NCBI GenBank assembly: GCA_030018135.1
Contig: JASEGJ010000011.1
Coordinates: 1 to 36,020, forward strand
Source of the DNA: Candidatus Hodarchaeaceae archaeon
GTDB taxonomy: Archaea; Hadarchaeota; Hadarchaeia; Hadarchaeales; Hadarchaeaceae
Length of the DNA: 36,020 nucleotides
Reading direction: 5' to 3'
Made by a program: the position numbers and the translations under genes. Shown piece after piece: positions 2,337-35,728 of the stretch. The notes beneath the pieces were generated by a model that searched no databases, was not told the origin of the DNA, and was given only the letters and a program-made list of their open reading frames with translations. Every line of letters begins with the position of its first letter. The first letter of the stretch is position 1.

Positions 2337-5264
2337 TTGATTGTGGTAGAATTGAAAAAGGCCGGGGACATCCTCGAACTCTTCTCAAGACCAATAAAGG
2401 AAGCGATCGAGCGAAGGGGCTTCATGGCATTAACTGAACCGCAGGAGAAGGCGATACCCCATATATTCAGGGGCGATAACGTCCTCCTCATCGCGCCCTC
2501 GGGTACCGGCAAGACGGAGGCCGCAATGTTGCCTGTCTTCGACATGCTAATCGCCTCGCAAAAGTCGCCGGGCATCAAGCTTCTCTACGTGACGCCGCTG
2601 AGGGCGCTCAACAGGGACATGCTGGAAAGGCTCGAGTGGTGGTGCAAGGCCCTCGACCTCCGCATAGCCACGAGGCACGGCGATACAGATGTTAGGGAGA
2701 GGGCAAAACAGGCGCTCGCGCCGCCGGATATCCTGATAACCACGCCCGAGACGCTCCAGGCGATCTTGGTCGGCAGGGTGCTCCAGCGCCACCTGCAAGC
2801 CCTGCGATGGGTGGTCGTAGATGAGGTGCACGAACTCGTGAACAACAAACGGGGAAGCCAGCTCGCCCTAGCGCTCGAGAGGCTCAGGCTGGTGGTGGGC
2901 CACGACTTTCAGACGATCGGCCTGTCGGCGACGGTCGGCTCGCCGGATGAGGTGGCTAGGTCGCTAGTCGGCGAGGGGCGCGAATGCATCATTCTAAAGG
3001 TTCCGGTTGCGAGGATGATGCTCCTCAAGATTTTATACCCGAAACCGACGAAGGAGGACTCGGCGCTGGCGGCGAGGCTTTATACATATCCCGAGGTCGC
3101 GGCGCGTCTCCGAGCCATGCGCGAGCTGATGGAGAAGTACCGCTCGACCTTGCTCTTCACAAATACCCGCTCGATAGCCGAAATCCTGGCAAGCCGCTTC
3201 AAGACTTGGGACATAAACGCACCCATAAGCATTCATCACGGCAGCCTGTCGAAGCCCTCGAGGCTTCAAACTGAGGGCGGGTTAAAGCAGGGTTCCCTAA
3301 AGGGCGTCGTCTGCACATCGTCGCTCGAACTCGGGATAGACATCGGCTCAATAGAACTCGTCATTCAGTACAACTCGCCGCGCCAAGTTACGAGGCTTGT
3401 GCAAAGGGTCGGGCGAAGCGGCCATTGGCTTGAGTGGGTCGCAGAGGGCGCGATAGTGTGCATGGACTCGGACGACCTCTTTGAATCGGCGGTCATAGCC
3501 AGACGGGGGCTCCAAGAAGACCTAGAATCGGTCAACATCCCGAGAAAGCCCCTCGATGTGCTGGCGCATCAAATTGCTGGCCTGCTCATGCAGCGGGAAA
3601 CTTGGTCGCTCTCCGAGATCTTAAAGCTGTTCACCAAAGCTTACCCCTACCGTGACCTTGACAGGCGCGAGCTGCAGGAAGTGTTAAACTATATGTATAC
3701 TAGAAGCCCCCGACTGGCGAATCTTTCCGCGGACGGAAAACTGGTTTCAAAGCCGTTCAATCGAAAGCCTCTTTATGACTATTACTTCTCCAAACTTTCC
3801 ACGATTCCGGAGGAGGTACAATACCTCGCGGTTGATGACGTGACAAATTCGCCCGTGGGCTTGCTCGACGAGGCTTTCCTCGCTGAGCATGGGGAGCCGG
3901 GGACGAGGTTGATCCTCAGGGGCTCGGCTTGGGAGGTACTCCACATCTATGAGAACACCGTCTACCTGAAGCCCGAGCACGACCCGACCGGTGCGATACC
4001 GAGCTGGGTGGGCGAGGAGATACCTGTACCGCTGGAGGTCGCGATGGAGGTCGGGGAAATCAGAAGGCTTGTTGAGCAGGAGATCGCGGACGGCAAGTCC
4101 GTATCGAACATCGTCGAGGGATTAAGCACGAGATACCCGATCGACGGAGAGGTGGCCGAGCGCGGCCTGTTGGAGATGCTCGAGCAATTGAAGCGAGGCC
4201 TACCGCTGCCCACGGATCAAAGGGCGACCGTCGAAGAGTGGGGAGAGATGATCATTGTGAACTGCACCTTCGGCTTGCTCGTCAATCGCACGCTCGCCCG
4301 ACTTTTGGGACATGTGCTCAGCGAGAAGATCGGCGCCTCCGTTGGGGTGCATCAGGACCCATATCGAATCGTGCTCAAAAGCCCCGACCTAACCGCGCGG
4401 GATGTAATCTCAACCATAAAGCAGCTTGCATCTTCGCCGATAAGACCGCTCCTCCGCCAGGCTGTGGCAAAGACCGGGTTGTTCAAGCGCAGATTCATCC
4501 ATGTCGCTAGGCGCTTTGGGGCGATGGAGAAGGGAGCCGAGCTGAGCTCCATGAAGATGTCACGGCTTTTAAAGGCATTTGAGGGGACGGTGGTTCATGA
4601 AGAAGCGATCACCGAAACGCTGGCCAACGATTTCGACGTCGAGGGTACCATGAAGGTGATGGACATGATAAATCGCGGCGACATAGATGTGGTACACATC
4701 GAGAACAAGGGCGAGCTCACGCCGATTTCTAGGGTCGGGATAACAGAGCTCACCTGGAAGAGCGACATCGTGCCGCCCGAGCGGATGCGGAAGGTGCTCA
4801 TCGAGTCCACGCGGGCTAGGGTAATGGGCGAGGGCAAGGTGCTCGCCTGCGCCGACTGCTGGAAATATTGTGAGCTCAAGGCTGTAAAGGACATCCCGCC
4901 GGAGCCCCGCTGCCCCGCATGTGGCTCGCGCTCCATGGGCGCGGTGGACGAGGAATACGAGCGGGTGCGAGAGGCGTTGGAGAAGTTCGCCCACGGCGAA
5001 AAGCCCACGCCACAGGAGGCTAGGATAAAGGGCGAGATCTCGAAAACTTCCAAGCTGGTCGGTAAATATGGCGCATCGGCGGTCGCAGCACTTTCGGCGC
5101 GCGGTTTGACCTTAAGTGAGGTCGAATCCGTTCTGGAGCGGGAAAGCGAGTTGAACTCACGCTTCTTCGAGCTGCTCCTCGAAGCTGAGAGGCAAGCATT
5201 GAGAAAGAGGTTCTTGTTCAGGCCCAGATATCGACTCGGCCGTCGGACCCGGGCGATGAAATGA
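2337..5264 (+). CDS. lhr: Lhr-family SF2 helicase with C-terminal Cys4 extension
   Basis: Motif I APSGTGKT, Ia 'YVTPLRALNRD', 'RHGDT', 'TTPETLQ', DEVH, 'GLSAT', 'TSSLELGIDIG', 'QRVGRSGH', and Lhr-type 'IPSWVGE'. C-terminal CADC...CPAC. The start may lie a few codons downstream. Confidence 0.92.
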   Translation: MIVVELKKAGDILELFSRPIKEAIERRGFMALTEPQEKAIPHIFRGDNVLLIAPSGTGKTEAAMLPVFDMLIASQKSPGIKLLYVTPLRALNRDMLERLEWWCKALDLRIATRHGDTDVRERAKQALAPPDILITTPETLQAILVGRVLQRHLQALRWVVVDEVHELVNNKRGSQLALALERLRLVVGHDFQTIGLSATVGSPDEVARSLVGEGRECIILKVPVARMMLLKILYPKPTKEDSALAARLYTYPEVAARLRAMRELMEKYRSTLLFTNTRSIAEILASRFKTWDINAPISIHHGSLSKPSRLQTEGGLKQGSLKGVVCTSSLELGIDIGSIELVIQYNSPRQVTRLVQRVGRSGHWLEWVAEGAIVCMDSDDLFESAVIARRGLQEDLESVNIPRKPLDVLAHQIAGLLMQRETWSLSEILKLFTKAYPYRDLDRRELQEVLNYMYTRSPRLANLSADGKLVSKPFNRKPLYDYYFSKLSTIPEEVQYLAVDDVTNSPVGLLDEAFLAEHGEPGTRLILRGSAWEVLHIYENTVYLKPEHDPTGAIPSWVGEEIPVPLEVAMEVGEIRRLVEQEIADGKSVSNIVEGLSTRYPIDGEVAERGLLEMLEQLKRGLPLPTDQRATVEEWGEMIIVNCTFGLLVNRTLARLLGHVLSEKIGASVGVHQDPYRIVLKSPDLTARDVISTIKQLASSPIRPLLRQAVAKTGLFKRRFIHVARRFGAMEKGAELSSMKMSRLLKAFEGTVVHEEAITETLANDFDVEGTMKVMDMINRGDIDVVHIENKGELTPISRVGITELTWKSDIVPPERMRKVLIESTRARVMGEGKVLACADCWKYCELKAVKDIPPEPRCPACGSRSMGAVDEEYERVREALEKFAHGEKPTPQEARIKGEISKTSKLVGKYGASAVAALSARGLTLSEVESVLERESELNSRFFELLLEAERQALRKRFLFRPRYRLGRRTRAMK

Positions 5265-23278: not shown

Positions 23279-23920
23279 TTGATAGAAACTATAGCTCAGT
23301 TTCCCATTGGTTTTATCGTGGCGCTGTCCGGCGTCCTGCTGCCCGGCCCATTGCTAGCGTTCGTCGTGGTCAAGACAATTTCAGGCGGCGCAAGGATTGG
23401 CACCTCCGCCGCGGTGGGTCACATCCTGGTCGAGCTCGGGATAGTTTCGCTAGTTTGTCTCGGCTTGGGCTTCGTGCTCCGGAGCCAAGCCTTCCAAGTT
23501 GGGGTAGGTGCACTTGGGGGGGGCCTACTTTTAATTCTTGGGGTTCTCAACCTCGTGCAGGTTTGGAGAATTCGTGAATTTAAACCGGAGATCGCGGGGG
23601 TGAGACATCATGCGATCATTGGAGGCGTGCTCTTCAGTACCGTCTTGAACCCAAGCGTGATCCTGTGGTGGGCAACGATCGGCTTAGCTATGCTCACCGA
23701 GGCATTTCTGACGGCGGCGGCGATCGGCGCCGCGCTTTGGTTGACTGGGCATTTCCTCGCGGACCTAGGTTGGTATTCATTCGTCTCGTACTCGATAACC
23801 AAGGGAAAGTGGTTGATGGGAAGCAGGGGCTACAAGGGACTTTTAATCGCTTGTGGATGCGTTTTGCTCCTCTTTGGGATCTACTTCATCATCAAATTTT
23901 GGTCGATTTTGATTGATTGA
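23279..23920 (+). CDS. LysE-family amino-acid exporter
   Basis: 'LSGVLLPGP', 'GH...E', 'LNP...WW..IG', 'GH...D..WY'. About 6 hydrophobic segments. Confidence 0.88.
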   Translation: MIETIAQFPIGFIVALSGVLLPGPLLAFVVVKTISGGARIGTSAAVGHILVELGIVSLVCLGLGFVLRSQAFQVGVGALGGGLLLILGVLNLVQVWRIREFKPEIAGVRHHAIIGGVLFSTVLNPSVILWWATIGLAMLTEAFLTAAAIGAALWLTGHFLADLGWYSFVSYSITKGKWLMGSRGYKGLLIACGCVLLLFGIYFIIKFWSILID

Positions 23921-24557
23921 GTTGGCGGCGTATTAAAAAATCGTGCGTCCGCGCGCCCAGCTCATGGACTTTAACGCCCAGCAAATCCGCCACATCATCG
24001 ACATCAAAGGCGACGGCGCGCGAGCGATAAATGCGCGGCCTTATGCCAGCCTTGCGGGCCTCCATCAGATGAACTGGAAAGCTTTCCCCCCCAAATCGTG
24101 GCTCCATCACATTAGGCGGCCTTAGAAACATGGCATTCGTGCCGTTGTCCTTCGACGGTGCCAGCACGATATCTTGGGGTGAAGATGCCATCGCGACGAT
24201 GTTTTCCACATCCGAGTGGCTTAAAAGCGGGAGGTCGGAGGGGATTATCAGCACAGAAGTCGCGCCCTTTGACAAGGCATGCAGAATGGCCAGCTTTATC
24301 GCTTCATTGAGCCCAACGCCCGGCTCGAGAAAACCGAGGGCGCCATTTTCCTTTGCGAAGCTCAAAACCTCCTCATCTGGGGACACGACGATTATGCCAG
24401 CTGCCGAGGGCGCACAGCGGACGGCCTCTAGCACGTCTGCAAGCATGCGGAGCGCTATTTCGCGGCGCTGGTCGTCGGTCAGTACGCCACTTAAGCTCGA
24501 CTTCGCCTCGCTCAAGCGCTTGGCGGGCACGATCGCCCACATCGACATGTCCATCAA
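23892..24557 (-). CDS. cofC: 2-phospho-L-lactate/PEP guanylyltransferase
   Basis: 'AIVPAKRLSEAKSSLS', 'MLADVL', 'GLNEA', 'SDLPLL', 'GTNA', 'FDVDDVADL'. F420 gene context. Confidence 0.92.
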   Translation of the reverse strand: MMDMSMWAIVPAKRLSEAKSSLSGVLTDDQRREIALRMLADVLEAVRCAPSAAGIIVVSPDEEVLSFAKENGALGFLEPGVGLNEAIKLAILHALSKGATSVLIIPSDLPLLSHSDVENIVAMASSPQDIVLAPSKDNGTNAMFLRPPNVMEPRFGGESFPVHLMEARKAGIRPRIYRSRAVAFDVDDVADLLGVKVHELGARTHDFLIRRQLNQSKSTKI

Positions 24558-24597
24558 GCACTTTTATGGCATCGTGCATCTTTATGTTGGTGTCCAT

Positions 24598-25734
24598 TTG
24601 GGTTTCGATGAAGCACTCGTCAGAATTTGCAACCATGAACCAACGCTCGAGGATCTAACACTCTTGCTTCGATCGACAGACAATCAGCTGACCGAATTGA
24701 TCAACCAAGCATCGGATGTTCGTGAGCTGGGGGGGCGCGAGGTCAGCTATTCGCGCAATGTTTTTTTGCCAATCACAAACCTGTGCCGCAATCGCTGCTG
24801 GTACTGTGGCTTTAGGCGCGACCCGGGCGACTCCGAGGCTTGGTTCATGTCGCTTGGGCGGGTTGCCGAACTCCTCGAGCGCGCGAGGGATGCCGCTTGT
24901 TCGGAGGCGCTTTTCACGCTCGGCGAGAGACCCGAGGTCCATGCGGAGGTCGGACGAGCACTCCGCGAGCTAGGGTATGAAATGATGATCGATTACCTGG
25001 AGGACCTTTGCCAATTTACGCTGAGTTTGGGATTGCTGCCTCACACGAATGTGGGCGTCATAAGTGAACGCGAGATGCGACGCCTGCGAAGGTTGAATGC
25101 AAGCATGGGGCTGATGTTGGAGTGCGCCGCGGATCTACCCGCGCACAGGGATAGCCCGGGCAAGGATCCACTTTTACGTCTGGAGGTGATAGAAACGGCC
25201 GGCAAGCTACGAGTGCCCTTCACCACCGGCCTGCTCATAGGCATAGGTGAGAGCTTCGAGGATCGGGCGCTCTCTTTGCTCTCGATTAAAAAAATTCATG
25301 ATGAGTACGGTCATATCCAAGAGATCATCATTCAAAATTTCGTGCCCAAGCCGAACACCCCGATGGCAAACTGCCCCGGCCCGAGCATCGAGGAGTTGTT
25401 AGCGATAGTTGCGACGGCGCGATTGTTGATGCCCGAGATGAACATCCAGGTGCCGCCGAACTTGCTGGATTTCAAGTGTGGACTTGAAACTTTCCTTTTG
25501 GCGGGCGCAAACGATCTGGGTGGGATCTCGTCCGTGACGCCAGATTTCATCAATCCCGATCACCCTTGGCCTAGCGTCGTCGAACTCCGAGCTTCGATCG
25601 AGCGGGCTGGGTTCGTCCCATGCGAGCGGTTGCCAATTTACCCACGCTACGCGAGAAACCCGAAGTTCATGTCGAGGGAGGTGAGAAAAGTTGTGCAAGA
25701 TCTTGCAGACGAGAACGGTTACCGCAGGGGCTAA
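24598..25734 (+). CDS. cofG: FO synthase subunit 1 (radical SAM)
   Basis: 'SYSRNVFLPITNLCRNRCWYCGF', 'EALFTLGERP', 'LLPHTN', 'NASMGLMLE', 'FTTGLLIGIGE', 'IQVPPNL'. Start reassigned to TTG 24598 because the track extension overlaps cofC antisense. Confidence 0.93.
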   Translation: MGFDEALVRICNHEPTLEDLTLLLRSTDNQLTELINQASDVRELGGREVSYSRNVFLPITNLCRNRCWYCGFRRDPGDSEAWFMSLGRVAELLERARDAACSEALFTLGERPEVHAEVGRALRELGYEMMIDYLEDLCQFTLSLGLLPHTNVGVISEREMRRLRRLNASMGLMLECAADLPAHRDSPGKDPLLRLEVIETAGKLRVPFTTGLLIGIGESFEDRALSLLSIKKIHDEYGHIQEIIIQNFVPKPNTPMANCPGPSIEELLAIVATARLLMPEMNIQVPPNLLDFKCGLETFLLAGANDLGGISSVTPDFINPDHPWPSVVELRASIERAGFVPCERLPIYPRYARNPKFMSREVRKVVQDLADENGYRRG

Positions 25735-25879
25735 ATCGCTGAATCTGCGTGATTCGGAGGATATATCAGCAATCCGCGTTACGGATCGGAGCGCTTATAG
25801 GTTACTTTCGGTCCCCTCTCCCCCCCAAAACCGTTTAAAAGCGTCCCCTAAATCACGAGCGGAAAACGAAACGTGGAGG

Positions 25880-26701
25880 GTGATAACGATCGAGCGCCAC
25901 CTGAAACGACGAGGAAATTATCTGCGCAAGAAAATCTCTTTTCGTGTTTTAAAACAAATGTATGGGGATGCCCTTCAGTTCCACCAAAAACGCGGATGGG
26001 GAGCCAGAAGAATCGCAAAATTGTTGACGCAACGTTATCAAACCGTGCAGAACTATGGACGCGAGTTTTCGTGGATTACTGTTGGCGGTTGGCTATACAA
26101 AGGTCATAACCCACTTAACGTTGTTAACACGTTGGACTGGAGCAAGCGATACGAGCTCGGATATCTAATCGGCGCTAGACTCAGCGATGCGTCCCCAGTC
26201 ATTGGGAAGAGGTGCAATAATTATGGACTCGAAACGGCGTCAAAAGACAAAGATTACGCTTTAGAACTCGCGCGGGTAGGCACAAAAGCTCACCAAAAGG
26301 ATAAGCCGTATGTAGTGCGTCGGTATGCCGGCGGCCATTGGCGTGTTTACGTATCCGGCGGAGAACTCGCTGAGTTACTTTCCATGGATCTGATGAAACT
26401 AAAACCATTCATAGAAGGTGACGCAAAAATTGCAAAAGGAGTTACACGCTCGTTCTTTGATGGCGACGGAAGTGTGGGTGGAAGAAATATCTCTGCTTAC
26501 GGAGATAGAGAAACGCTCGAATTCATCGTCGGCCTCTTGCGCAAACATTTCATGATAAATGCGTACGTTTTGTCAAAGCCCGTCTACAGGCTCCACATCC
26601 CCCGTAGATACTGGTTGGATTTCTATGAGGAGATAGGTTTCGCTATTCGCAGAAAGCAAAGAGTCTTGGCTGAGTTAATCAAAGAGCGTAAGGTGTTCTA
26701 A
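25880..26701 (+). mobile_element. Free-standing double-motif LAGLIDADG endonuclease-like gene with N-terminal HTH-like region
   Basis: Motifs 'LGYLIGARLSDAS' and 'GVTRSFFDGDGSV', late block 'FYEEIGFAIRRKQ'. Own BRE/TATA (AAAACCGTTTAAAA at about 25827-25840). Visibly more AT-rich than cofG/cofH. Start approximate. Confidence 0.8.
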
Positions 26702-26702
26702 G

Positions 26703-27902
26703 ATGGTTAGCTCTAACTCGAAGTTAGACTACTCCATACGGATGAAGCGAACTTCGCCGTCTATTGATGAATGTTTTAAGGAGATTGATCCCATCGTGGG
26801 CTCAATACTTGACAAGGCGCTCTGTAACAAAGATATCGACGTAAAAGAGGCAACGGAACTGTTTGGGGTTGAAGGACAAGAGCTTTGGCTTCTCGCAGTG
26901 ACAGCGGATGAATTGCGGCACAGGGCTGTGGGGGGTATCGTAACCTATGTGATAAACAGAAACATTAATCACTCGAACATCTGCGTGGGATCCTGCAAGT
27001 TCTGCGCTTTCCGACGCTCGCTAGGGGACCCGGATGCGTACGTGCTCACGCGCGAGCAGATCGCGGCAAAGGTCCGTGAGGCTGTTCGGTTTGGAGCGAC
27101 TGAGGTTTGCGTGCAAGGCGGGCTGCATCCCGACTTTGGACTCGAGGATTATTTGGTGATACTCCGCGCGATCAGGGGTGTGAGCCGGAGTATTCACATC
27201 CACGCCTTTTCCCCAGCCGAGCTCGACCACATCTCGAGGCAGGAGGGGCTGTCGATCGAGGAGGTGATAAAAACGCTTCGCGAAGCTGGATTGAATTCGG
27301 TTCCCGGCACGGCGGCCGAAATCCTCGTCGATCGCGTGCGTGGCATCATCTGCCCGAAGAAGCTGAGCTCGGAGCGATGGATCGGGATAATCAAAGCCTG
27401 CCACCGCTTGGGCTTGCCGACCACTGCGACGATGCTATACGGCCATGTTGAAACACCGCGGGAGCGGGCCAAACACATGGAAATCCTGAGGGAGATCCAG
27501 CGAGAGACACATGGCTTTACAGAATTTGTGCCGCTTTCCTTCATGCCACACAACACACCGCTGCAACGTGGGGGAGTCGTAACCGATGTCTCAACTGGCG
27601 CAGATGACATTCGTGTGCACGCCGTCGCACGCCTGATGCTGACGGGCTACATCGACAACGTCCAAGCATCCTGGGTGAAACTCGGGCCGAAGCTGGCGCA
27701 GGTGATGCTGGGCGCCGGAGCGAACGATCTGTCGGGCACGCTCATGGAGGAGAACATCTCCCGCGCGGCTGGTGCTCAACAGCAATCGATGCTGCCGCGC
27801 CAACTCGAGCGGCTCATCCTTGACATGGGACGAGTGCCTAGGCAGAGAACCACCACGTACGGGACGCCGCCACGCCGGAGTGCATACGCATCGATCGCCT
27901 GA
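26703..27902 (+). CDS. cofH: FO synthase subunit 2 (radical SAM)
   Basis: 'VTYVINRNINHSNICVGSCKFCAF', 'ATEVCVQGGLHP', 'PGTAAEIL', 'TMLYGHVE', 'GFTEFVPL', 'NVQASWVKLG', 'GTLMEENIS'. Start may be ATG 26742. Confidence 0.94.
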   Translation: MVSSNSKLDYSIRMKRTSPSIDECFKEIDPIVGSILDKALCNKDIDVKEATELFGVEGQELWLLAVTADELRHRAVGGIVTYVINRNINHSNICVGSCKFCAFRRSLGDPDAYVLTREQIAAKVREAVRFGATEVCVQGGLHPDFGLEDYLVILRAIRGVSRSIHIHAFSPAELDHISRQEGLSIEEVIKTLREAGLNSVPGTAAEILVDRVRGIICPKKLSSERWIGIIKACHRLGLPTTATMLYGHVETPRERAKHMEILREIQRETHGFTEFVPLSFMPHNTPLQRGGVVTDVSTGADDIRVHAVARLMLTGYIDNVQASWVKLGPKLAQVMLGAGANDLSGTLMEENISRAAGAQQQSMLPRQLERLILDMGRVPRQRTTTYGTPPRRSAYASIA

Positions 27903-27908
27903 CCGCGA

Positions 27909-28838
27909 TCATTTGAATTTTGCGAGTTCCAATATCGTCCGCGCCAGCGCCACCCTATTGATGTGGTCTGGCATAAGTATGTTGGCAAATACCGCCTTTA
28001 TGTTGAGTTCCTCGACCGCCGGCGCGAAATGGTTATCCGTGTTGTCCAGAACAAGCGTGCCGACGAAATCACGATAGAGCTGCGCCACGCCGACCGAACT
28101 CACCTCGTAGCCGAGGCCTTGCATGAGCGCGCCAGCTGGGCCGCTAACCGCACGATCGCCGATGATTGGGCTGACGGCGAGCACCTTCCCGCGATGTCGC
28201 GACAACGTGGCCCGGATCTCCTTGATGGAGAGGATGGGTCCTATGCTCGTTACCGGATTGCTGGGCCCGATCAAAATTGCATCGGCGGCCTCGAGGGCCT
28301 CGATCACGCCGGGAGCGGGTTCAGCGCCCTCCGCGCCCTTAAACGCGACGTCGAGAACTTTATCAGCGGCCCCTCGGACGACCCAAAATTCATGAAACGT
28401 CATCACGCCTGCCTCGGTGTTTATGTATGTGGTCACACGGTCGTCGGACATCGGCATGACGTTCGCTTCGATGCCAAGCTTGCGGCAAAGCAACTTTGTT
28501 GCCTCGGAAAGCGTCTTTCCCTGATTAAAGAGAAGCGCGCGATGAATCTTGATTGCTCGGTCCCTATCGCCTATCATTAGGAGCTCCTCCTCGCCAAGGC
28601 GCTTGAGCATCTCGTGGCAGAAGAAAGTATCGCCTCTTATGCCGTACCAAGTCTCCTCATTGACTATACCGGCGAGAGTGTAGACGACGGTATCGATATC
28701 CGGCGAGATGTAAATGCCCGACATCCCAAAGTCCTCGCCAGTGTTGACGACGATCGAGAGTTCCTTGGGCTCGAGCAGGCGCGAAAGGCCCTGTAGCAGT
28801 TTGGGCGTGCCGGTACCGCCGGAAAGCACCGCGAGCAT
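27909..28838 (-). CDS. cofD: 2-phospho-L-lactate transferase
   Basis: 'LSGGTGTPKLL', 'VNTGED', 'SPDIDTV', 'GDRDRA', 'GPSNPVTSIGPI', 'SGPA'. Confidence 0.95.
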   Translation of the reverse strand: MLAVLSGGTGTPKLLQGLSRLLEPKELSIVVNTGEDFGMSGIYISPDIDTVVYTLAGIVNEETWYGIRGDTFFCHEMLKRLGEEELLMIGDRDRAIKIHRALLFNQGKTLSEATKLLCRKLGIEANVMPMSDDRVTTYINTEAGVMTFHEFWVVRGAADKVLDVAFKGAEGAEPAPGVIEALEAADAILIGPSNPVTSIGPILSIKEIRATLSRHRGKVLAVSPIIGDRAVSGPAGALMQGLGYEVSSVGVAQLYRDFVGTLVLDNTDNHFAPAVEELNIKAVFANILMPDHINRVALARTILELAKFK

Positions 28839-28842
28839 TTTA

Positions 28843-29583
28843 TCACCTGAACAAATCTCGCTCCAAAGGCATCACCAGATCGCGCGCGCTTCCAAAACCT
28901 CGCTCGTAGACTGCACCCTTTATAATAATGACGGGCGTTCCCTCGTTTGCCTCGCCCATTACCGCGACCGCGGTCGCAGCCAACGCATCGGCCGGCGAGG
29001 TGATGGTGGTCTTCAGTTCCTTGCCGTAAAGGTCACGCCTGCCGCGCATGTCAAGCAGTGGTTTAATGCCGGCGACTCCGACCGCGACTCCGACCGCACC
29101 GCACCTGAATGGCCTGCCTTGCGTGTCCGACACGATAACCGCGACATCAACACCAACCGCCCGCTTTATACCATCTCGTATTTGCCTAGCGCTTGCGTCA
29201 GGGTCCTTTGGCAGGAGCGTCACGTGCTCATCCCAAACGTTCGAGTGGTCGACGCCAGCATTTGCGCAGACGAAGCCGTGCTCGGTGCGCGCGATCAAAA
29301 CGTGTTTCAGTCTGACTATTTCCTTGGATTGCTGTAGGATGACTTCAACCTCGCGCGGGTCCTTGTCCAATTGTCCGACAAGTTTCCTCGCGCGCCGACT
29401 GGGCTCTATGGTTCTGAGGTCAACTACCCTACCCTCAGCCTTCGAAACGATACTCTGCGCCACGACCACGACATCCCCGTCCTCCAAGCGCAAGTTTTGT
29501 TCCTCTAAAGCGTGCACGATGAGTTCATCGATGCGATCACCCCTCTTCACCAACGGCAGGCCCTTGAGCGCGATTACCTCCAC
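28843..29583 (-). CDS. cofE: F420-0:L-glutamate ligase
   Basis: 'DGDVVVVAQSIVSKAEG', 'ANAGVDHSN', 'DTQGRPFR', 'MGEANEGTP'. Immediately upstream of cofD. Confidence 0.93.
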   Translation of the reverse strand: MEVIALKGLPLVKRGDRIDELIVHALEEQNLRLEDGDVVVVAQSIVSKAEGRVVDLRTIEPSRRARKLVGQLDKDPREVEVILQQSKEIVRLKHVLIARTEHGFVCANAGVDHSNVWDEHVTLLPKDPDASARQIRDGIKRAVGVDVAVIVSDTQGRPFRCGAVGVAVGVAGIKPLLDMRGRRDLYGKELKTTITSPADALAATAVAVMGEANEGTPVIIIKGAVYERGFGSARDLVMPLERDLFR

Positions 29584-29636: not shown

Positions 29637-30614
29637 TTGAAGTTCGGCGTCGAGTTTGTGCCCTATAAATCATCGGATGTTTTGGTCGGGCTCGCCAAGC
29701 AGGTTGAGGACGCTGGTTTTAATTACATTTGGGTGTGCGACCACTATCACAACCGCTATGTGCACTCCGTGCTGGCCACGCTTGCCCTCGCAACCAAGCG
29801 CGTGAGGCTTGGTCCGGGAGTCACGAACCCGTATCTTGTCCACCCAGCCGTAACTGCCGCGGCGATCGCCACGCTCGATGAGCTCTCTCGGGGTCGTGCC
29901 GTGTTCGGCATCTCCGCGGGCGACCCGACCTTCCTCGCCACGGTTGGAGTAAAACATCGCAGGCCGATCGTCGCCGTGCGCGAGGCGGTCTACATCGCGC
30001 GAAGGTTGCTGGCTGGTGAGCGGGTGGATTTCTCGGGTGAGGTCTTCACTTGCCGCGGCGCGAAGCTTCGATTCAAGCCAGAGGTAAACGTGCCGATATA
30101 CATCGGGGGTCGCGGACCCAAGATGCTTGAGCTCGCGGGCTCGATCGCGGATGGCGCGTTAATCAACGCGTCGCACCGCGATGACCTGAGGGAATGCGTC
30201 GATTACGTCAGGAGGGGGGCAGAATCATCGAATCGAAAACTGGAGGGGCTGGATGTCGTCGCATACATGGCGACCTCCATCGGCGGAGATGCCGCCAAAG
30301 CTCGAAGGACGGCTAGGACGGTCGTAGCGTTCATAGCATCCTCCGCGCCACCTTGGGCGTTGGAGAGGCACGACATACCCGCGGACGACGTCGATGAAAT
30401 CCGCAAGCACCTTCGCGTCGGGGAGATCCAAAAGGCGGCAGAGGCGGTGAGTGATAGGATGGTAGACGCGTTCGCGGTATGCGGGACGCTGGTCGAGTTC
30501 GAGCGGCACATCAACGACCTCAGCAAGCTCGGCATAACACAGGTGGTCGTCGGCTCCCCCATAGGGCCTGAACCGACCAAGGTGATAGACTCGATAAAAA
30601 AGCTCCTGCGATAA
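29637..30614 (+). CDS. mer: F420-dependent methylene-tetrahydropterin reductase
   Basis: 'MKFGVEFVP', 'DHYHNR', 'LGPGVTNPY', 'GPKMLELAG..ADGALINASH', 'QVVVGSPIGP'. Confidence 0.88.
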   Translation: MKFGVEFVPYKSSDVLVGLAKQVEDAGFNYIWVCDHYHNRYVHSVLATLALATKRVRLGPGVTNPYLVHPAVTAAAIATLDELSRGRAVFGISAGDPTFLATVGVKHRRPIVAVREAVYIARRLLAGERVDFSGEVFTCRGAKLRFKPEVNVPIYIGGRGPKMLELAGSIADGALINASHRDDLRECVDYVRRGAESSNRKLEGLDVVAYMATSIGGDAAKARRTARTVVAFIASSAPPWALERHDIPADDVDEIRKHLRVGEIQKAAEAVSDRMVDAFAVCGTLVEFERHINDLSKLGITQVVVGSPIGPEPTKVIDSIKKLLR

Positions 30615-30616
30615 GC

Positions 30617-31732
30617 TTACTTGGGGCTTTCCTCCGGAGCTGGTGGCAGGAGCCAGGGCGGCAGGGGCTTGCCGATCCTCCTTCGTCGCTCGATCTCGTT
30701 GTTCGCCTCCCGCTTCTTCTTCGTCGCGATCCGCCTGACGGCCTCGACCCCGGGCCCGACATCATCGAGCGGCCGAAGCTCGATGGCCCTCGCCCTCTTG
30801 GCTAAATCGAGCGCTTCAAATCCGGGGGAGGTGCGCAGGAGAATCGTGGAGTAGTTGAGCGGCGATCCAACGGCTCCGACGGAGATGTCCGCTAGCTCCG
30901 CGGCGAAATCGAGGCAGAGCTTGCAGGGAACGTCCACAAATTGCTCCAAAGCATCGACAGCCAACTCGCGCTTGGGCCTGCCCCTGCGATAGATAATGAA
31001 CCTCCCCCGCTTGATGTCGAACTTCGCCACCTCCCTCAACTTGGTCTCCAGTTGCCCCTCGATGACGCGCTTGAAGAACCCCTCGTACGGGAAGGCCTCC
31101 ATGCAGAAGAGCCCGATGCAGAGCTTGATTCTATCCGTGAGGCGATGGACGGCCCGCTCGCTCGACCTCATAGCTCGAAGGGCCTTCATTTGACAGGGCG
31201 TGCCTACCAGCGCCAATCGCTCGCCGGAGTAGAGGTCCACGGCGTCGCGCAGCCCCAGCAGGATTGCGCCTCGGGAGTACTTTGTGCCGCTACACTCCAC
31301 CAGCTCCTCTCGAGTCACCGCGACCTTGGGCACGGGGCGCCACTCGTCATCTCTCCCCATCACCACCGCACCATCGATGAAGCCCGTCTTAAGCAATGCG
31401 GCGAGCAATGCTGTGACCACGCCGCCATCCTGACCATGTGCGGTTATCTCCGGATCTGACGCTCGAGCTGAAAAGGCCCGTTCATAAATACCTAAAACCT
31501 CGCTCGCGGCAGCGCCACGCCCGAAGATTCGAGCTTCCAGCGCGGCTTGGTCGTTGACCTGCGGGCAATGGTAGTAGCAGACGTTGCACAGCTCGCATCG
31601 CGCCTTGAGGACTGGCTTTTCATCCTCCATATGCAGCACGCTATGCGGACATGAAGCCACGCACGCCCCGCAGCCCAAGCAGAGCCCAGGGTTGATGACC
31701 TCCTTCATGAGGTGTGCAAATATCTTGGTCAA
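30617..31732 (-). CDS. F420 hydrogenase/dehydrogenase beta-family protein with N-terminal 2[4Fe-4S] ferredoxin (FpoF/FqoF-like)
   Basis: CLGCGACVASCP and CELCNVCYYHCP, plus FrhB motifs 'GQDGGVVT', 'GTPCQ', 'GLFCME', 'CKLCLDF..ELADISVG'. TTGA overlap with the gcvT stop. Confidence 0.88.
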   Translation of the reverse strand: MTKIFAHLMKEVINPGLCLGCGACVASCPHSVLHMEDEKPVLKARCELCNVCYYHCPQVNDQAALEARIFGRGAAASEVLGIYERAFSARASDPEITAHGQDGGVVTALLAALLKTGFIDGAVVMGRDDEWRPVPKVAVTREELVECSGTKYSRGAILLGLRDAVDLYSGERLALVGTPCQMKALRAMRSSERAVHRLTDRIKLCIGLFCMEAFPYEGFFKRVIEGQLETKLREVAKFDIKRGRFIIYRRGRPKRELAVDALEQFVDVPCKLCLDFAAELADISVGAVGSPLNYSTILLRTSPGFEALDLAKRARAIELRPLDDVGPGVEAVRRIATKKKREANNEIERRRRIGKPLPPWLLPPAPEESPK

Positions 31733-32853
31733 GTCATCCTCCTCGTGAAACCATATTTCTCCGTGTCATAAAACGGCCAGTTCACGACCTCTGCGGCGCG
31801 GGGCTTGCCGTGGATTTCGATTGCCACCCTCGCGCCGGGGGCAATGTCGGGGCTAGCATAACCCATTGCGATGCCTACGTTCAGAAGCGGGGAAATTGTG
31901 CCGGACGTCACGTAGCCAACCTCCTCGCCGTCCTCCAGCACTCTATAGCCCTGGCGCGGCACTCCACGATCGAGCATTCTCATACCTATACGAACTCGCC
32001 TTAAGCCAGTTGCCCTTTGCCTCATCAGAGCTTCACGGCCGATGAACTCGCCTTTCTCAAGCTTAACCGCGTATGATATCTTTGCCTCAAATGGTGTCGT
32101 TTCCTCGTTTAACTCGTGATCGTACAGCACGAAGCCAGCTTCCAAGCGGGTGGTGTCCCTAGCCCCAAGACCGCAAGGCTTGATGCCCACCCCCCTGCCA
32201 GCGCTCAATAATGCATTCCAAAGCCCTTCAGCCCTCGCTGGGTTTGAAGCGGGCTCACCGGTTAGGTACAATTCGAACCCGTCCTCGCCGGTATAGCCGG
32301 TGCGGCTGACCAGCGTCGGTAAGCCAGCGACTTCAATCGAAGTTGCCCTAAAGCGTCCGAGTTGGTCCAGCTCGAATTCTGTAAGCTGTTGCAACACCTG
32401 CTCCGCCCTCGGGCCTTGGAGCGCAAGCATCAGCGTCGTGTCGGTGATGTTTTGAATCTCAACGTCCCCGCTCTCTTGTTGTTTGAACCAACCGTAAATC
32501 TTCTCGATGTTTATCGCATTCGTCACCACCATGTATGCATGTTCTTCGACGCGGTAGATGAAGACATCATCCATAATCCCGCCGCGCTCGTTCAGGACGG
32601 TTGAGTAGTGCGCATCGAACACATTGAGCCTTGAAATGTCGTTGGTCGTCGTACGTTGCAGGAAGCTGCCAGCGTCTTTTTTCCTGACCAAAATCTCGCC
32701 CATGTGGCTGACGTCGAAGAGCCCGACTGCCTCGCGGACCGCCAGATGCTCCTCGACGATGCCGGAGTACCTGAGAGGCATCTCCCAGCCCGCGAATGGC
32801 ACCATCTCGGCGCCGAGCGAGCGGTGAACGCGCGCGAGCTGAAGCTGTTTCAT
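31729..32853 (-). CDS. gcvT: Glycine cleavage system aminomethyltransferase T
   Basis: 'FAGWEMPLRY', 'LFDVSHMGE', 'LALQGP', 'SRTGYTGEDGFE', 'GLGARDTTRLEAG'. Start at ATG 32853. Confidence 0.94.
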   Translation of the reverse strand: MKQLQLARVHRSLGAEMVPFAGWEMPLRYSGIVEEHLAVREAVGLFDVSHMGEILVRKKDAGSFLQRTTTNDISRLNVFDAHYSTVLNERGGIMDDVFIYRVEEHAYMVVTNAINIEKIYGWFKQQESGDVEIQNITDTTLMLALQGPRAEQVLQQLTEFELDQLGRFRATSIEVAGLPTLVSRTGYTGEDGFELYLTGEPASNPARAEGLWNALLSAGRGVGIKPCGLGARDTTRLEAGFVLYDHELNEETTPFEAKISYAVKLEKGEFIGREALMRQRATGLRRVRIGMRMLDRGVPRQGYRVLEDGEEVGYVTSGTISPLLNVGIAMGYASPDIAPGARVAIEIHGKPRAAEVVNWPFYDTEKYGFTRRMT

Positions 32854-32957
32854 GTGCCGACCAAGTCGACGATAGTGGCCGAGCCACCTTAAAACTTTTT
32901 GAAAATCATTCGATAGGTTTAAAACAATCGGCATGCACATTTACCTAGGTGGGTTTT

Positions 32958-33026
32958 TTGCGGAGAAAAAGGTGGAAGCTGAGCAAGGCGGAATGCAAGA
33001 AAAATAGCTGCGTGTGTGCATCGTGA
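32958..33026 (+). CDS. Putative 22-aa Cys-rich peptide (candidate RiPP precursor), absent from the ORF track
   Basis: TTG start preceded by SD-like AGGTGG and TATA TTTAAAA (32918-32924). Translates MRRKRWKLSKAECKKNSCVCAS*. 39 nt separate it from the rSAM/SPASM gene. Confidence 0.45.
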   Translation: MRRKRWKLSKAECKKNSCVCAS

Positions 33027-33065
33027 AGGCTGGAGCACCGAGGCACCTCTTTTTAGGGTATTCCG

Positions 33066-34070
33066 ATGGTTTGGCACGGTCTTTATTCCGTAACTTGGAA
33101 TGTGACGAGCAAGTGCAACTTTTCCTGCGAGCACTGCTACGTGCCATCGTCGGAGCAAAGAGATTTGAGCCATCGAGAAGCAAAAAGGTTGTTGGGCCAA
33201 CTGGCTGACCTCGGCGCGGAGGAGCTTTACATCAGCGGAGGTGAGCCCCTCATGAGGGGGGATCTTTTCGATTTGATAGGACACGCCGCAGACCTCGGAT
33301 TGCGAGTTGCAGCGATTACCAATGGGTGGCATCTGACGAGGGAGAAAGCCCTCCTCTTCAAGAACGGTGGCGTCGACCATGTTTCGGTCAGCGTCGACGG
33401 GATTGGGCGGACTCACGATGAATTCAGAAACAAGACTAGGTCCTTCGAGAGGTGCGTAAGGGCGATAAGGCTGTTGAAGGAGGCGGGCGTAAAAACCTAC
33501 CTCTCGCCGACCTTTTCCAAGCACAACATAGATGAACTCCCAGCCCTATTTTCGCTCGCGCTTGACCTTGGGGTGAACTTTTCGACCAAGGTGATGATTC
33601 CCATGGGTCAGGCGAGGGCCTTAAGCGAATATTGCCTCAGCCCAGATGAGCAAAAAGGGCTCTACGAGTACCTCCGTGCCAAGAAGGCCGAGTTCGATGG
33701 GAAGATCGACATCGTCACCACTTGCAACCCATATTCAGTACTCTTCAGCGGAAAGCGCAAACTAGCCAGCGATAGAATCCGCGGCGGATGCACCGCTGGC
33801 GTCTCCATCCTTTGCATCTCGGCAGACGGAAACATCCTGCCATGCTCTAGGCTGCAGATTGCACTCGGCAATGTGCGCGAGGTTTCGCTCCCTGACATCT
33901 GGTATTCGTCCGAATATTTGGCCATGCTCCGGGACAGGGATAACTTAAGGGGAAAATGTGGCGCGTGCCGCTATAAGAACTGGTGCGGCGGATGCAGGGC
34001 TATGGCCCTCGCGCGGCTTGGCGATCATTTCGCTGAAGACCCGAGCTGTTGGATTGAGGAAGGGGGTTAA
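33066..34070 (+). CDS. Radical SAM enzyme with SPASM domain
   Basis: CNFSCEHC, 'SGGEP', 'TNG', 'VSVDG...HDEFR'. SPASM cysteines 'CTAG..CISADGNILPC..CGACRYKNWCGGCRA..EDPSC'. Confidence 0.92.
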   Translation: MVWHGLYSVTWNVTSKCNFSCEHCYVPSSEQRDLSHREAKRLLGQLADLGAEELYISGGEPLMRGDLFDLIGHAADLGLRVAAITNGWHLTREKALLFKNGGVDHVSVSVDGIGRTHDEFRNKTRSFERCVRAIRLLKEAGVKTYLSPTFSKHNIDELPALFSLALDLGVNFSTKVMIPMGQARALSEYCLSPDEQKGLYEYLRAKKAEFDGKIDIVTTCNPYSVLFSGKRKLASDRIRGGCTAGVSILCISADGNILPCSRLQIALGNVREVSLPDIWYSSEYLAMLRDRDNLRGKCGACRYKNWCGGCRAMALARLGDHFAEDPSCWIEEGG

Positions 34071-34086
34071 CCGAGCGGGACACATC

Positions 34087-34926
34087 ATGAGGCGCGCCGA
34101 TCTCGCTGGCGTGAGAGTTGGCGATGATGGCCCCGTCGTCATAATTGGGGCGCTGAATATCGGGCCAGAATCATTTTACCGGGGCTCCGTCGTGCGAGGC
34201 GAGGGCGAAGTCATCGAGCGCGCAGGGCGCATGCTCGAGGAGGGAGCCAGCATCATAGACATCGGGGCGATGTCTACTGCACCCGGGATCAAGCCCATCT
34301 CTGCTTCTTTAGAAAGGCGAAGGTTGATCCCCGTCATTAAGGCTTTGGCGAAGGAGCTCGATGCACCTATCTCCGTCGACACCCAGCGTGCCATAGTGGC
34401 CGAGGCCGCACTCGAAGCCGGCGCGGGCATGGTAAACGATGTCAGCGGGCTCAAGGCCGACCCGAGGATGGCACGCGTCATCGCCGACTTCAAATGTTCG
34501 GCTGTGCTCATGGCAGCGCGGCAGAGGCCGGGCGATGCCCGAACCGTAGACGAGATCCGGCGCGCGCTGGAAGATAGCCTTCGCATATGCGAGCGCCACG
34601 GCATCGAAGCGCAAAAAATTGCCGTCGACCCAGGCATAGGATTTGGCAAGGGTGCCGAGTGGGACCTCTACATCCTTGCGAATCTCAATCGGTTGAAGGC
34701 GCTGGGGCGGCCGATATGTGTTGCAGTTTCGCGCAAGTTTTTCATCGGACATGTGTTAAACTTACCCGACCCCGCAGACCGGCTGTGGGGCTCGCTGGCC
34801 GCCACGGCGATTGCCGTGCTCAATGGCGCTGATGTCGTTAGGACTCATGATCCAAAGGAGACATCTCACGCCATCCGCGTTGCTGAGGCAGTTCGAAGTG
34901 GCAAAAACCAAAGATTAAAACGTTAG
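34087..34926 (+). CDS. folP: Dihydropteroate synthase (FolP-like pterin-binding enzyme)
   Basis: 'GALNIGPESF', 'IIDIGAMSTAPG', 'ISVDT', 'NDVSG', 'DPGIGFGK', 'SRK', 'VRTHD'. Start at ATG 34087. Confidence 0.9.
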   Translation: MRRADLAGVRVGDDGPVVIIGALNIGPESFYRGSVVRGEGEVIERAGRMLEEGASIIDIGAMSTAPGIKPISASLERRRLIPVIKALAKELDAPISVDTQRAIVAEAALEAGAGMVNDVSGLKADPRMARVIADFKCSAVLMAARQRPGDARTVDEIRRALEDSLRICERHGIEAQKIAVDPGIGFGKGAEWDLYILANLNRLKALGRPICVAVSRKFFIGHVLNLPDPADRLWGSLAATAIAVLNGADVVRTHDPKETSHAIRVAEAVRSGKNQRLKR

Positions 34927-34957: not shown

Positions 34958-35728
34958 GTGCGGGTGTTGGGTTTAAACATGCCGCTAATCAAGCCGGGCG
35001 ATGAGCTGCCACAGATGATTTTGAAAGCCGCTGAGCAGGTCGGCGGCCTCAGGGACGGCGATATCGTAGTCATAGCATCGAGCGCCCTCGCAACCGCGCA
35101 GGGGCGCCTTAGGAGGCTCGCGAGTGTCCGCGCGTCCCCTCGCGCGAAGCAGCTGGCGAAGGAAAGCGGCCTCGAGCCAGAATTTGTGGAGCTTGTGCTC
35201 AGGGAGGCAAAAGAGATTTTGGGTGCGACCAAGCGGGCCTTGATGACCCTTAAGGGTGGCACGTTCCGTGTGAATGCCGGCATAGATCACTCCAATGCTC
35301 CCCCAGGGTACGTCGTGTTAATGCCAGCCAAGCCAAATCGGGCCGCAAACGAGATCATGCGGGCGCTTAGACAGCAGTCAAATGCCCTCGTCGCCGTAAT
35401 AGTCGCGGACAGCCACATTCAGCCGCTTCGACTCGGCACGATCGGCATGGCGGTCGGCGTCGCTGGCATGGAGCCGGTGATCGACTGTCGCGACCAACTC
35501 GACCTCTTCGGCAAGCCCCTGCGGATAACCTTCAGAGCTGTAGCGGATCAGCTCGCTTCGGCGGCGCAGGTCTTGATGGGAGAGGGCGCTGAGCGGGTGC
35601 CGGTCGTAGTCATACGCGATGTAGGCGTGGCCCTCGTGGACGCGCCAAAAGTCTCGCCTAAAATTGCGCCGAAGCGCTGCGTGTACATCGGCTCGTTGAA
35701 GCTCCTAAAGCTTTTTAAAAGGCGCTGA
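34958..35728 (+). CDS. Second CofE-family gamma-glutamyl ligase, probably pterin/folate-directed (FolC2-like)
   Basis: 'NAGIDHSN', 'DSHIQPLRLG', 'DLFGKPL', 'MGEGAERVP'. Directly downstream of folP. Confidence 0.75.
   Translation: MRVLGLNMPLIKPGDELPQMILKAAEQVGGLRDGDIVVIASSALATAQGRLRRLASVRASPRAKQLAKESGLEPEFVELVLREAKEILGATKRALMTLKGGTFRVNAGIDHSNAPPGYVVLMPAKPNRAANEIMRALRQQSNALVAVIVADSHIQPLRLGTIGMAVGVAGMEPVIDCRDQLDLFGKPLRITFRAVADQLASAAQVLMGEGAERVPVVVIRDVGVALVDAPKVSPKIAPKRCVYIGSLKLLKLFKRR

Follow-up and report, generated by a model that had tools for sequence, protein, structure and literature searches.

Functional characterisation of archaeal peptides that are synthesised ribosomally and modified post-translationally (RiPPs) is almost limited to a few lanthipeptides, and archaeal RiPP clusters with radical S-adenosylmethionine (SAM) enzymes have been predicted by bulk genome mining, according to PMC12144867. 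On a large Cys-rich methanogen protein, ranthionine formation by a SPASM enzyme containing a RiPP recognition element (RRE) is described in PMC13692751. Neither work deals with the family studied here. Here we analysed a stretch of 36,020 nt from a Candidatus Hodarchaeaceae archaeon (Hadarchaeota; assembly GCA_030018135.1, contig JASEGJ010000011.1; hereafter the window, meaning this whole stretch), in which a very short open reading frame (ORF) encoding a Cys-containing peptide lies directly upstream of a gene for a radical SAM (rSAM)/SPASM enzyme. The host genome (1.1 Mb) is 92.9% complete. A reading made from the DNA letters (the sequence-only reading) had proposed that the two genes form a minimal precursor-maturase pair. 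We consider it probable that they do form such a minimal and RRE-independent pair, which probably makes Cys thioethers. Our literature search found no paper on this peptide-enzyme family, which is no proof that none exists.

Comparison with described peptide-maturase pairs

Ranthipeptide and sactipeptide systems (CteA/CteB, PapA/PapB, SkfA/SkfB) resemble this locus in the association of a SPASM/twitch rSAM enzyme with an adjacent short Cys peptide, found here at 25 of 25 loci, and in the Cys thioether chemistry that we propose; CteB and SkfB are also among the solved structures closest to the enzyme. Unlike these systems, the present locus has no RRE, either fused or adjacent, and its peptide is only 20-22 residues long, with two conserved Cys and no separable leader, protease or exporter. 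The enzyme scored far below the cut-offs of the corresponding models (PapB, 81 versus 340 bits; StsB, 130 versus 625; SkfB, 76.5 versus 300).

PqqA/PqqE and MftA/MftC likewise combine a SPASM enzyme with a very short precursor whose key residues are at the C-terminal end or close to it. Among solved structures, PqqE (6c8v, 2e-26) comes first in sequence similarity, followed by SkfB (6efn, 7e-25) and then by SuiB, CteB (5wgg, 1e-13) and anSME. In contrast to the PQQ and mycofactocin systems, however, there is no RRE partner of the PqqD/MftB type here and there are no tailoring genes, and the enzyme remained below the cut-offs of both families (135.2 versus 381 bits for PqqE, 117.4 versus 265 bits for MftC). 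PqqA carries a Glu-x3-Tyr motif and MftA a C-terminal Val-Tyr; the peptide studied here has neither and is devoid of Tyr in 24 of the 25 loci.

DarE/DynA and the streptococcal RaS-RiPP enzymes NxxcB and WgkB likewise recognise a short motif within a small peptide, and DarE works without an RRE. These enzymes nevertheless belong to other sequence families (the DynA and WgkB models matched the enzyme weakly, with 73 and 114 bits) and act on other peptide motifs. As far as described, these systems are bacterial and stand alongside exporters, proteases or quorum-sensing regulators.

The best matches of the enzyme among profile models were to AhbD, NirJ and AhbC (TIGR04545, TIGR04055, TIGR04051 and TIGR04546) and to TIGR04053, proteins of similar length with the same SPASM Cys layout and around 35% identity. 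The family differs from them by its scores (244-276 bits versus a cut-off of 500 bits), by its position, in a quick tree rooted at the midpoint, outside their clades, by an N-terminal strand of its own and by its dedicated peptide gene; there is moreover no match to ALAD in the host genome.

Judged from sequence, the locus resembles pairs of the sactipeptide/ranthipeptide or PQQ/mycofactocin type, and it belongs to no curated family among those tested. The general RiPP layout of leader and core with protease and export is not found; at its length, the peptide leaves no space for a distinct leader. The locus is an unusually minimal variant of the pairs made of an rSAM/SPASM enzyme and a short Cys peptide, and a small and clean case, with a peptide of 20-22 residues apparently recorded by no gene caller and a 334-residue enzyme without RRE. 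If our reading is correct, it would serve as a minimal model of how SPASM enzymes recognise substrates independently of an RRE, and would also reveal a peptide-acting enzyme lineage adjoining AhbD/NirJ.

Conservation of the peptide gene and of its pairing with the enzyme

Taken alone, the 22-codon ORF is not beyond chance, and the ORF listing showed that this intergenic region of 210 nt is overlapped by several further ORFs of at least 20 residues. Searches recovered orthologues of the enzyme, at 57-79% identity, in five of 60 other related genomes, in the same five species among GTDB contigs, and on 21 metagenome contigs. Twenty-five orthologous loci had upstream DNA (the window and four Hadarchaeota genomes, five of five, and 20 of 20 metagenome contigs), and all 25 carried the peptide ORF 21-40 nt 5' of the enzyme gene. 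We judged the ORF to be real because the same ORF was recovered in all these loci.

The codon alignment exhibited AGC/TCG serine switches and changes mostly at third positions, and the stop codon, be it TGA, TAG or TAA, was always at one fixed position. For 20 of the 25 loci, represented by 18 distinct core DNA sequences, the ratio of nonsynonymous to synonymous polymorphism (pN/pS) was 0.16 and the differences by codon position were 356:258:1080. The small ORF is therefore a genuine gene under purifying selection. Short ORFs are frequent in this intergenic region, as one would expect if this one were a chance ORF or a piece of conserved non-coding DNA, but the coding substitution pattern, the fixed stop position with three different stop codons and the presence of the ORF in every locus make that explanation highly improbable.

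No variation was seen in the W, K and L of the peptide, in one E, in either Cys of C-[VI]-C and in the last residue, S. The C-terminus thus follows a C-x-C-x-S pattern, ending with [AS]-S in the 25 loci, and a nearly invariant Lys-Asn precedes the Cys pair. The C-x4-C-x-C pattern that the sequence-only reading had pointed out was retained in part: the C-x-C is invariant, but the first Cys is replaced by Ser in most orthologues and by Ala in one. From the start codon to Trp there are 2-4 residues, variable in number and identity; for this reason, the start of the peptide was placed at the TTG that is present in 22 of 25 loci, downstream of a conserved GGTG. A single sub-clade (L002, L003 and L064) has CTG at the codon aligned with 32958-32960 of the window, the peptide still being conserved.

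The signals around the peptide gene were compared by eye. In the orthologous loci, an A/T-rich box (TTATTAAAG, CTTAAATC or GTTAAATAA) begins about 38-41 nt 5' of the start codon, and the GGTG core lies 5-8 nt 5' of it in all 25 aligned loci. The AGGTGG of the window presumably pairs with the 3' end of archaeal 16S rRNA; a 10-base motif for this 3' end gave no match in the assembly. The spacers between peptide and enzyme genes are 21-40 nt long and differ in sequence, with a run of 4-5 T in most of them, and such an oligo-T spacer could act as a partial terminator. The box, the Shine-Dalgarno-like site, the TTG, the ORF, the T5 run and the enzyme ATG all lie where the sequence-only reading had placed them (Table 1). 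The small GAG-GCAC-CTC stem that it had added in the spacer did not hold: of 200 shuffled sequences, 189 folded at least equally well (z +1.46), and the spacers of the orthologues have different sequences; Rfam gave no family at 32700-33200 (E up to 1). A read-through fusion of peptide and enzyme was rejected, the 21-40-nt spacers not being in a constant frame and stops intervening. No RNA runs containing this stretch are listed, and only three hot-spring DNA runs carry small shares of it.

The pairing was specific, and no other association of the locus was constant. The peptide motif occurs once in the host genome and, among 175 loci, it was recovered in orthologue loci only (34 entries with, 141 without). 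Homologues of the enzyme at around 30-40% identity had no recurrent upstream Cys peptide, and many of them have instead an N-terminal extension of 110-140 residues. The peptide ORF thus co-occurs strictly with this enzyme family. The check put forward with the original proposal, namely to look upstream of homologous enzymes for a conserved short ORF with Trp and the Cys pattern, came out in its favour for the close loci, the distant homologues being without it. A search of about 15 billion predicted proteins retrieved no form of the peptide, which is therefore apparently called by no pipeline; peptide genes below the size limits of gene callers can be recovered through conservation alone.

Enzyme family and predicted binding of the peptide

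The enzyme matches PF04055 (Radical_SAM) at residues 12-164 (E 2.1e-29, 103 bits versus a cut-off of 29.5) and PF13186 (SPASM) at residues 242-301 (E 8e-11, 42.5 bits versus 21.5), and no other Pfam domain. The CX3CX2C motif (C17-x3-C21-x2-C24) is invariant, as are nine more Cys in the C-terminal third (C220, C242, C250, C260, C298, C301, C307, C310 and C328). Their arrangement (C242-x12-G255-x4-C260, C298-x2-C301-x5-C307-x2-C310, C328) has the form of the seven-Cys SPASM pattern for two auxiliary clusters, for which, by this layout, the Cys set is sufficient. Since the Cys motif begins at residue 17, and given the extents of the Pfam domains, an RRE would not fit into the enzyme. The sole PqqD match of the genome was rejected as an RRE, being weak (23.9 bits) and located inside an Lhr-type helicase of 975 residues (window 2337-5264, match at residues 585-620); it probably reflects similarity to a winged-helix domain.

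The enzyme family comprises 33 protein clusters at 56-94% identity, followed by a drop to 39% or less outside, and the only names that its members carry are "radical SAM protein" or "hypothetical". Among NCBIfam models, the enzyme best matched AhbD (TIGR04545, 243.8 bits) and NirJ2 (234.5 bits), both with cut-offs of 500; against the AhbD model, the family members P0017 and P0026 reached 269 and 276 bits and a true AhbD (P0049) 534.5. The nearest proteins outside the family were AhbD-, AhbC/NirJ1- and TIGR04053-like. In a quick IQ-TREE phylogeny (45 rows, midpoint-rooted), the 14 family rows formed a clade of their own (Shimodaira-Hasegawa-like approximate likelihood ratio support 100), adjoining a few unnamed long-branched sequences and located outside both the AhbD plus TIGR04053 clade (99) and the AhbC/NirJ1-like clade (99). 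Clustering with AhbC, AhbD or NirJ had been named beforehand as an outcome that would speak against the pair; these are indeed the nearest named relatives, yet the family is far below their cut-offs and outside their clades in this tree. ALAD (PF00490), the one gene of the tetrapyrrole pathway that was searched, had no match in the host genome at its completeness of 92.9%, while the control search gave matches in 11 of 14 genomes; a tetrapyrrole substrate is therefore unlikely. The host genome also encodes a second radical SAM/SPASM protein (C33:18124-19176, minus strand, open frame of about 505 residues), which matches the enzyme in two pieces (residues 7-226 and 228-328) and has counterparts in most related genomes.

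The complex of peptide and enzyme was predicted with the L002 enzyme and the unaltered 36-residue L002 ORF that begins at an upstream in-frame ATG (chains of at least 30 residues being required), each chain being the first row of an orthologue alignment and three 4Fe-4S clusters and SAM being included. The runs scored 0.86, 0.90 and 0.85, versus 0.01 for the best of three controls; the mark applied to this score is reached by 116 of 157 solved complexes and by 2 of 215 mismatched pairs. Contact agreement between runs was at least 72% and the predicted local distance difference test (pLDDT) of the partner at least 60. The contacted residues of the 36-residue form (18-24, 26-28 and 30-36) correspond exactly to the conserved part of the peptide (19 residues), and the 17 extra N-terminal residues were not named in the interface. 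Invariant residues of the enzyme among the contacts were H4, G5, S8, S107, S173, K175, T218-P222 (with C220), G240-T243 (with C242), C250 and C260-R262. The contacts of lowest error joined the W-K-L-S-K-E-E-C segment of the peptide with enzyme residues 3-8 and 238-247, the latter being the first SPASM hairpin. Residues 3-8 lie in an N-terminal strand specific to the family, as the AhbD-type models align only from residue 9 onwards. Barrel residues 82, 84, 107, 173, 175 and 217-222 were also in the predicted interface; we assigned them to the peptide tail (30-36), a pairing that the prediction itself does not report. Binding of the peptide by the enzyme and its geometry are thus supported in silico only, and the model suggests that RRE-free recognition of a short peptide would be possible.

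For this pair we infer translation in vivo, a substrate role of the peptide, thioether chemistry, and a fate and use of the product, along the following lines. The two genes would be transcribed together from their own TATA-type promoter, and translation of the peptide would start at TTG (CTG in one sub-clade) after the GGTG ribosome-binding site. The conserved N-terminal half (W-K-L-S/T-K-x-E) would dock as an extended strand, by strand addition, between the family-specific N-terminal strand (residues 3-10) and the first SPASM hairpin (about 236-250), and this docking would make up for the absence of an RRE. The tail, invariant as C-[VI]-C-[AS]-S, would then enter the barrel, close to the SAM cluster and to the first of the auxiliary clusters. 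A 5'-deoxyadenosyl radical, generated by reductive SAM cleavage, would abstract a hydrogen from a peptide carbon, and capture of the carbon radical by Cys sulfur would form one or two thioether bridges of the sactionine or ranthionine type; candidate acceptors are the invariant Glu and the Lys-Asn, nearly invariant, that precedes the Cys pair. The peptide (20-22 residues) would thus be the dedicated substrate of the adjacent enzyme, in a cassette confined, as far as searched, to Hadarchaeota, a proposal that we rate as rather likely.

Several observations weigh against this proposal. The nearest named relatives, AhbD and NirJ, act on tetrapyrroles and not on peptides, and the peptide-maturase models scored lower (nif11-class 144 bits, PqqE 135, MftC 117, PapB 81). 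The enzyme has no RRE, and there is no consistently adjacent RRE, protease or exporter at the orthologous loci, in agreement with what the sequence-only reading had seen in the window. The start codon is CTG in 3 of the 25 loci, the codon alignment showing no conserved alternative start there. The calibration of the complex score is only rough, given the self-supplied alignments and the ligands riding along, and the high score may partly reflect memory of, or likeness to, solved SPASM-peptide complexes. Finally, a tightly bound subunit that is not a substrate would look identical in all these tests. The original idea of a minimal precursor-maturase pair is thus borne out by the conserved upstream ORF and the predicted binding, while the relationship with the small-molecule enzymes AhbD, NirJ and AhbC counts against it.

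In the case of a bound subunit, the peptide would be a stable small subunit of a small-molecule enzyme, or would donate a cluster or metal ligand through its C-x-C, and the substrate could be a carboxylate-bearing metabolite, decarboxylated as by AhbD or NirJ, possibly in a pterin or one-carbon (C1) pathway. The small-molecule activity of the nearest named relatives would fit with this, as would a predicted interface that touches the region of the Cys ligands of the first auxiliary cluster (C242, C250 and C260). However, the nine invariant Cys of the SPASM region can fully ligate two clusters unaided, and we know of no such peptide subunit in this superfamily. We consider this explanation unlikely, including the evidence from neighbouring genes given below.

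A cis-acting role could also be considered, in which the upstream ORF would be a regulatory leader that stalls the ribosome at its stop codon and controls read-through of the oligo-T into the rSAM gene, by arrest or attenuation as in TnaC. Such an element would likewise always accompany its gene, its conserved residues are all in the last 17 codons, and so inside the ribosome tunnel, at a fixed distance from the stop (the 2-4 N-terminal residues varying), and most loci have 4-5 consecutive T after the stop. On the other hand, the identity of the stop codon varies, the hairpin is unsupported, Rfam gave no match in the region, and the complex model places the conserved part in the active-site cleft (0.86 versus 0.01 for the controls), which a purely cis-acting peptide would not need. 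To our knowledge, arrest peptides have not been described in archaea, and Cys peptides next to SPASM enzymes are substrates with a high base rate. We thus consider a regulatory leader to be quite improbable and retain the precursor-maturase pair.

Genomic context and possible products

Table 1. Elements of the peptide-enzyme locus and neighbouring genes in the window
Feature	Position	Strand	Remark
TATA-like box TTTAAAA	32918-32924	+	Read directly from the sequence; putative promoter of the peptide-rSAM transcript
Shine-Dalgarno-like AGGTGG	32947-32952	+	Read directly from the sequence
Peptide gene, 22 codons, encoding MRRKRWKLSKAECKKNSCVCAS	32958-33026 (codons 32958-33023, TGA 33024-33026)	+	TTG start
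Spacer, 39 nt	33027-33065	+	T5 run at 33050-33054 and purine-rich site 5' of the rSAM ATG
Radical SAM/SPASM enzyme, 334 aa, no RRE	33066-34070	+	ATG start; Pfam Radical_SAM and SPASM
Dihydropteroate synthase (DHPS, FolP type), next gene, same direction	34087-34926	+	TIGR01496, 261.7 bits versus cut-off 162.6
CofE-like gamma-glutamyl ligase, pairs with DHPS	34958-35728	+	PF01996, E 5.5e-68
GcvT aminomethyltransferase, divergent neighbour	31729-32853	-	NF001567, 439.9 bits

The genes for DHPS and the CofE-like ligase follow the rSAM gene in the same direction in 11 of the 21 assessable loci (Table 1); the window is one of these, and another has a NERD gene inserted. In the other 10 loci there is no DHPS next to the enzyme, and in at least 7 of them the next conserved gene encodes a 284-residue protein without Pfam match. 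On the 5' side, GcvT is the divergent neighbour in 15 loci, its place being taken elsewhere by genes for type II secretion system/type-IV-pilus-like ATPases, a NosD-like protein, a phosphatase or a CoA-binding protein. Because the pair persists while its neighbours change, we consider peptide and enzyme as a two-gene cassette.

The 284-residue protein lies directly 3' of the rSAM gene in several loci (L066:1686-2537, L068:4041-4892, L079:1453-2304), and the host genome has a copy at C41:23694-24533. It was rejected as a specific third component, being present in 34 of 61 related genomes with or without the enzyme. An MFS transporter gene, convergent and downstream, was found only at those loci that have this 284-residue protein.

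True orthologues of the enzyme are patchily distributed (6 of 61 related genomes). DHPS in turn is present in 41 of the 61 genomes, and many Hadarchaeota loci with DHPS and the CofE-like ligase have no rSAM gene, so that a role of the enzyme as a general step of the p-aminobenzoate/pterin pathway is ruled out by its distribution. The sequence-only reading had taken the position of the pair in a cofactor cluster as a hint of an intracellular, cofactor-like product. This position is real but is not a dependable functional clue, since the pair is found in other contexts at 10 of the 21 assessable loci and the DHPS-CofE-like pair is widespread without the enzyme.

The same neighbourhood bears on the alternative in which the peptide serves as a subunit of a small-molecule enzyme. 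DHPS and the CofE-like ligase come next in the same direction in 11 of 21 loci, and the genome lacks a dedicated PabB, FolC and RFAP synthase, so that pterin steps remain unassigned there. Against this, the pair is away from DHPS at the 10 other loci, and most Hadarchaeota having the DHPS-CofE-like pair are without the enzyme, which hence performs no general pathway step.

Returning to the precursor-maturase pair, its product would probably be intracellular, because no exporter or protease is conserved nearby. In an alternative reading, the pair would follow the logic of PQQ and mycofactocin: after cross-linking, the C-terminal residues of the peptide would be excised, yielding a small cofactor of redox or thiol type for the F420/pterin C1 enzymes encoded nearby. 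In size the peptide is close to PqqA and MftA, its invariant residues are at the extreme C-terminus, the enzyme is, like PqqE and MftC, a SPASM protein, no conserved exporter lies close by, and the window pair lies among genes for CofC/G/H/D/E, Mer, an FrhB-like protein, GcvT, DHPS and the CofE-like ligase. However, no PqqB/C/D/F-like or MftB/D/E/F-like genes for tailoring or excision are conserved alongside, the linkage with cofactor genes is missing at 10 of 21 loci, and a distribution limited to 6 of 61 related genomes suits an accessory trait more than a core cofactor. A peptide-derived cofactor of this type appears unlikely. Equally unlikely, in our view, is a broader conjecture in which an AhbD-like enzyme, free of RRE, would have been re-tooled from tetrapyrrole carboxylate chemistry to a ribosomal peptide, the cassette yielding an intracellular peptide-derived thiol/redox cofactor or prosthetic peptide for the F420/pterin C1 enzymes that surround the pair at half of the loci.

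The F420 biosynthesis cluster of the window spans 23892-29583 and includes CofC (23892-24557, minus strand), two CofG/CofH-type radical SAM genes (one within 24130-25734, the other at 26703-27902, plus strand), CofD (27909-28838, minus strand) and CofE (28843-29583, minus strand). It is followed by Mer (29637-30614, plus strand) and an FrhB-like ferredoxin fusion (30617-31732, minus strand). As for pterin-related genes, the host genome encodes an MptE-like kinase and has no match to FolC or RFAP synthase; its sole chorismate-binding enzyme is TrpE, located in the trp operon, and there is no dedicated PabB. The CofE-like protein may be a pteroate glutamyl ligase. DHPS of the FolP type is paired with this second CofE-like ligase in many Hadarchaeota (L152, L153, L162, L166-L170, L172 and L173). 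In one of these relatives without rSAM gene, an ORF of 90 residues without Pfam match (L152:2483-2752, plus strand) lies between GcvT and DHPS.

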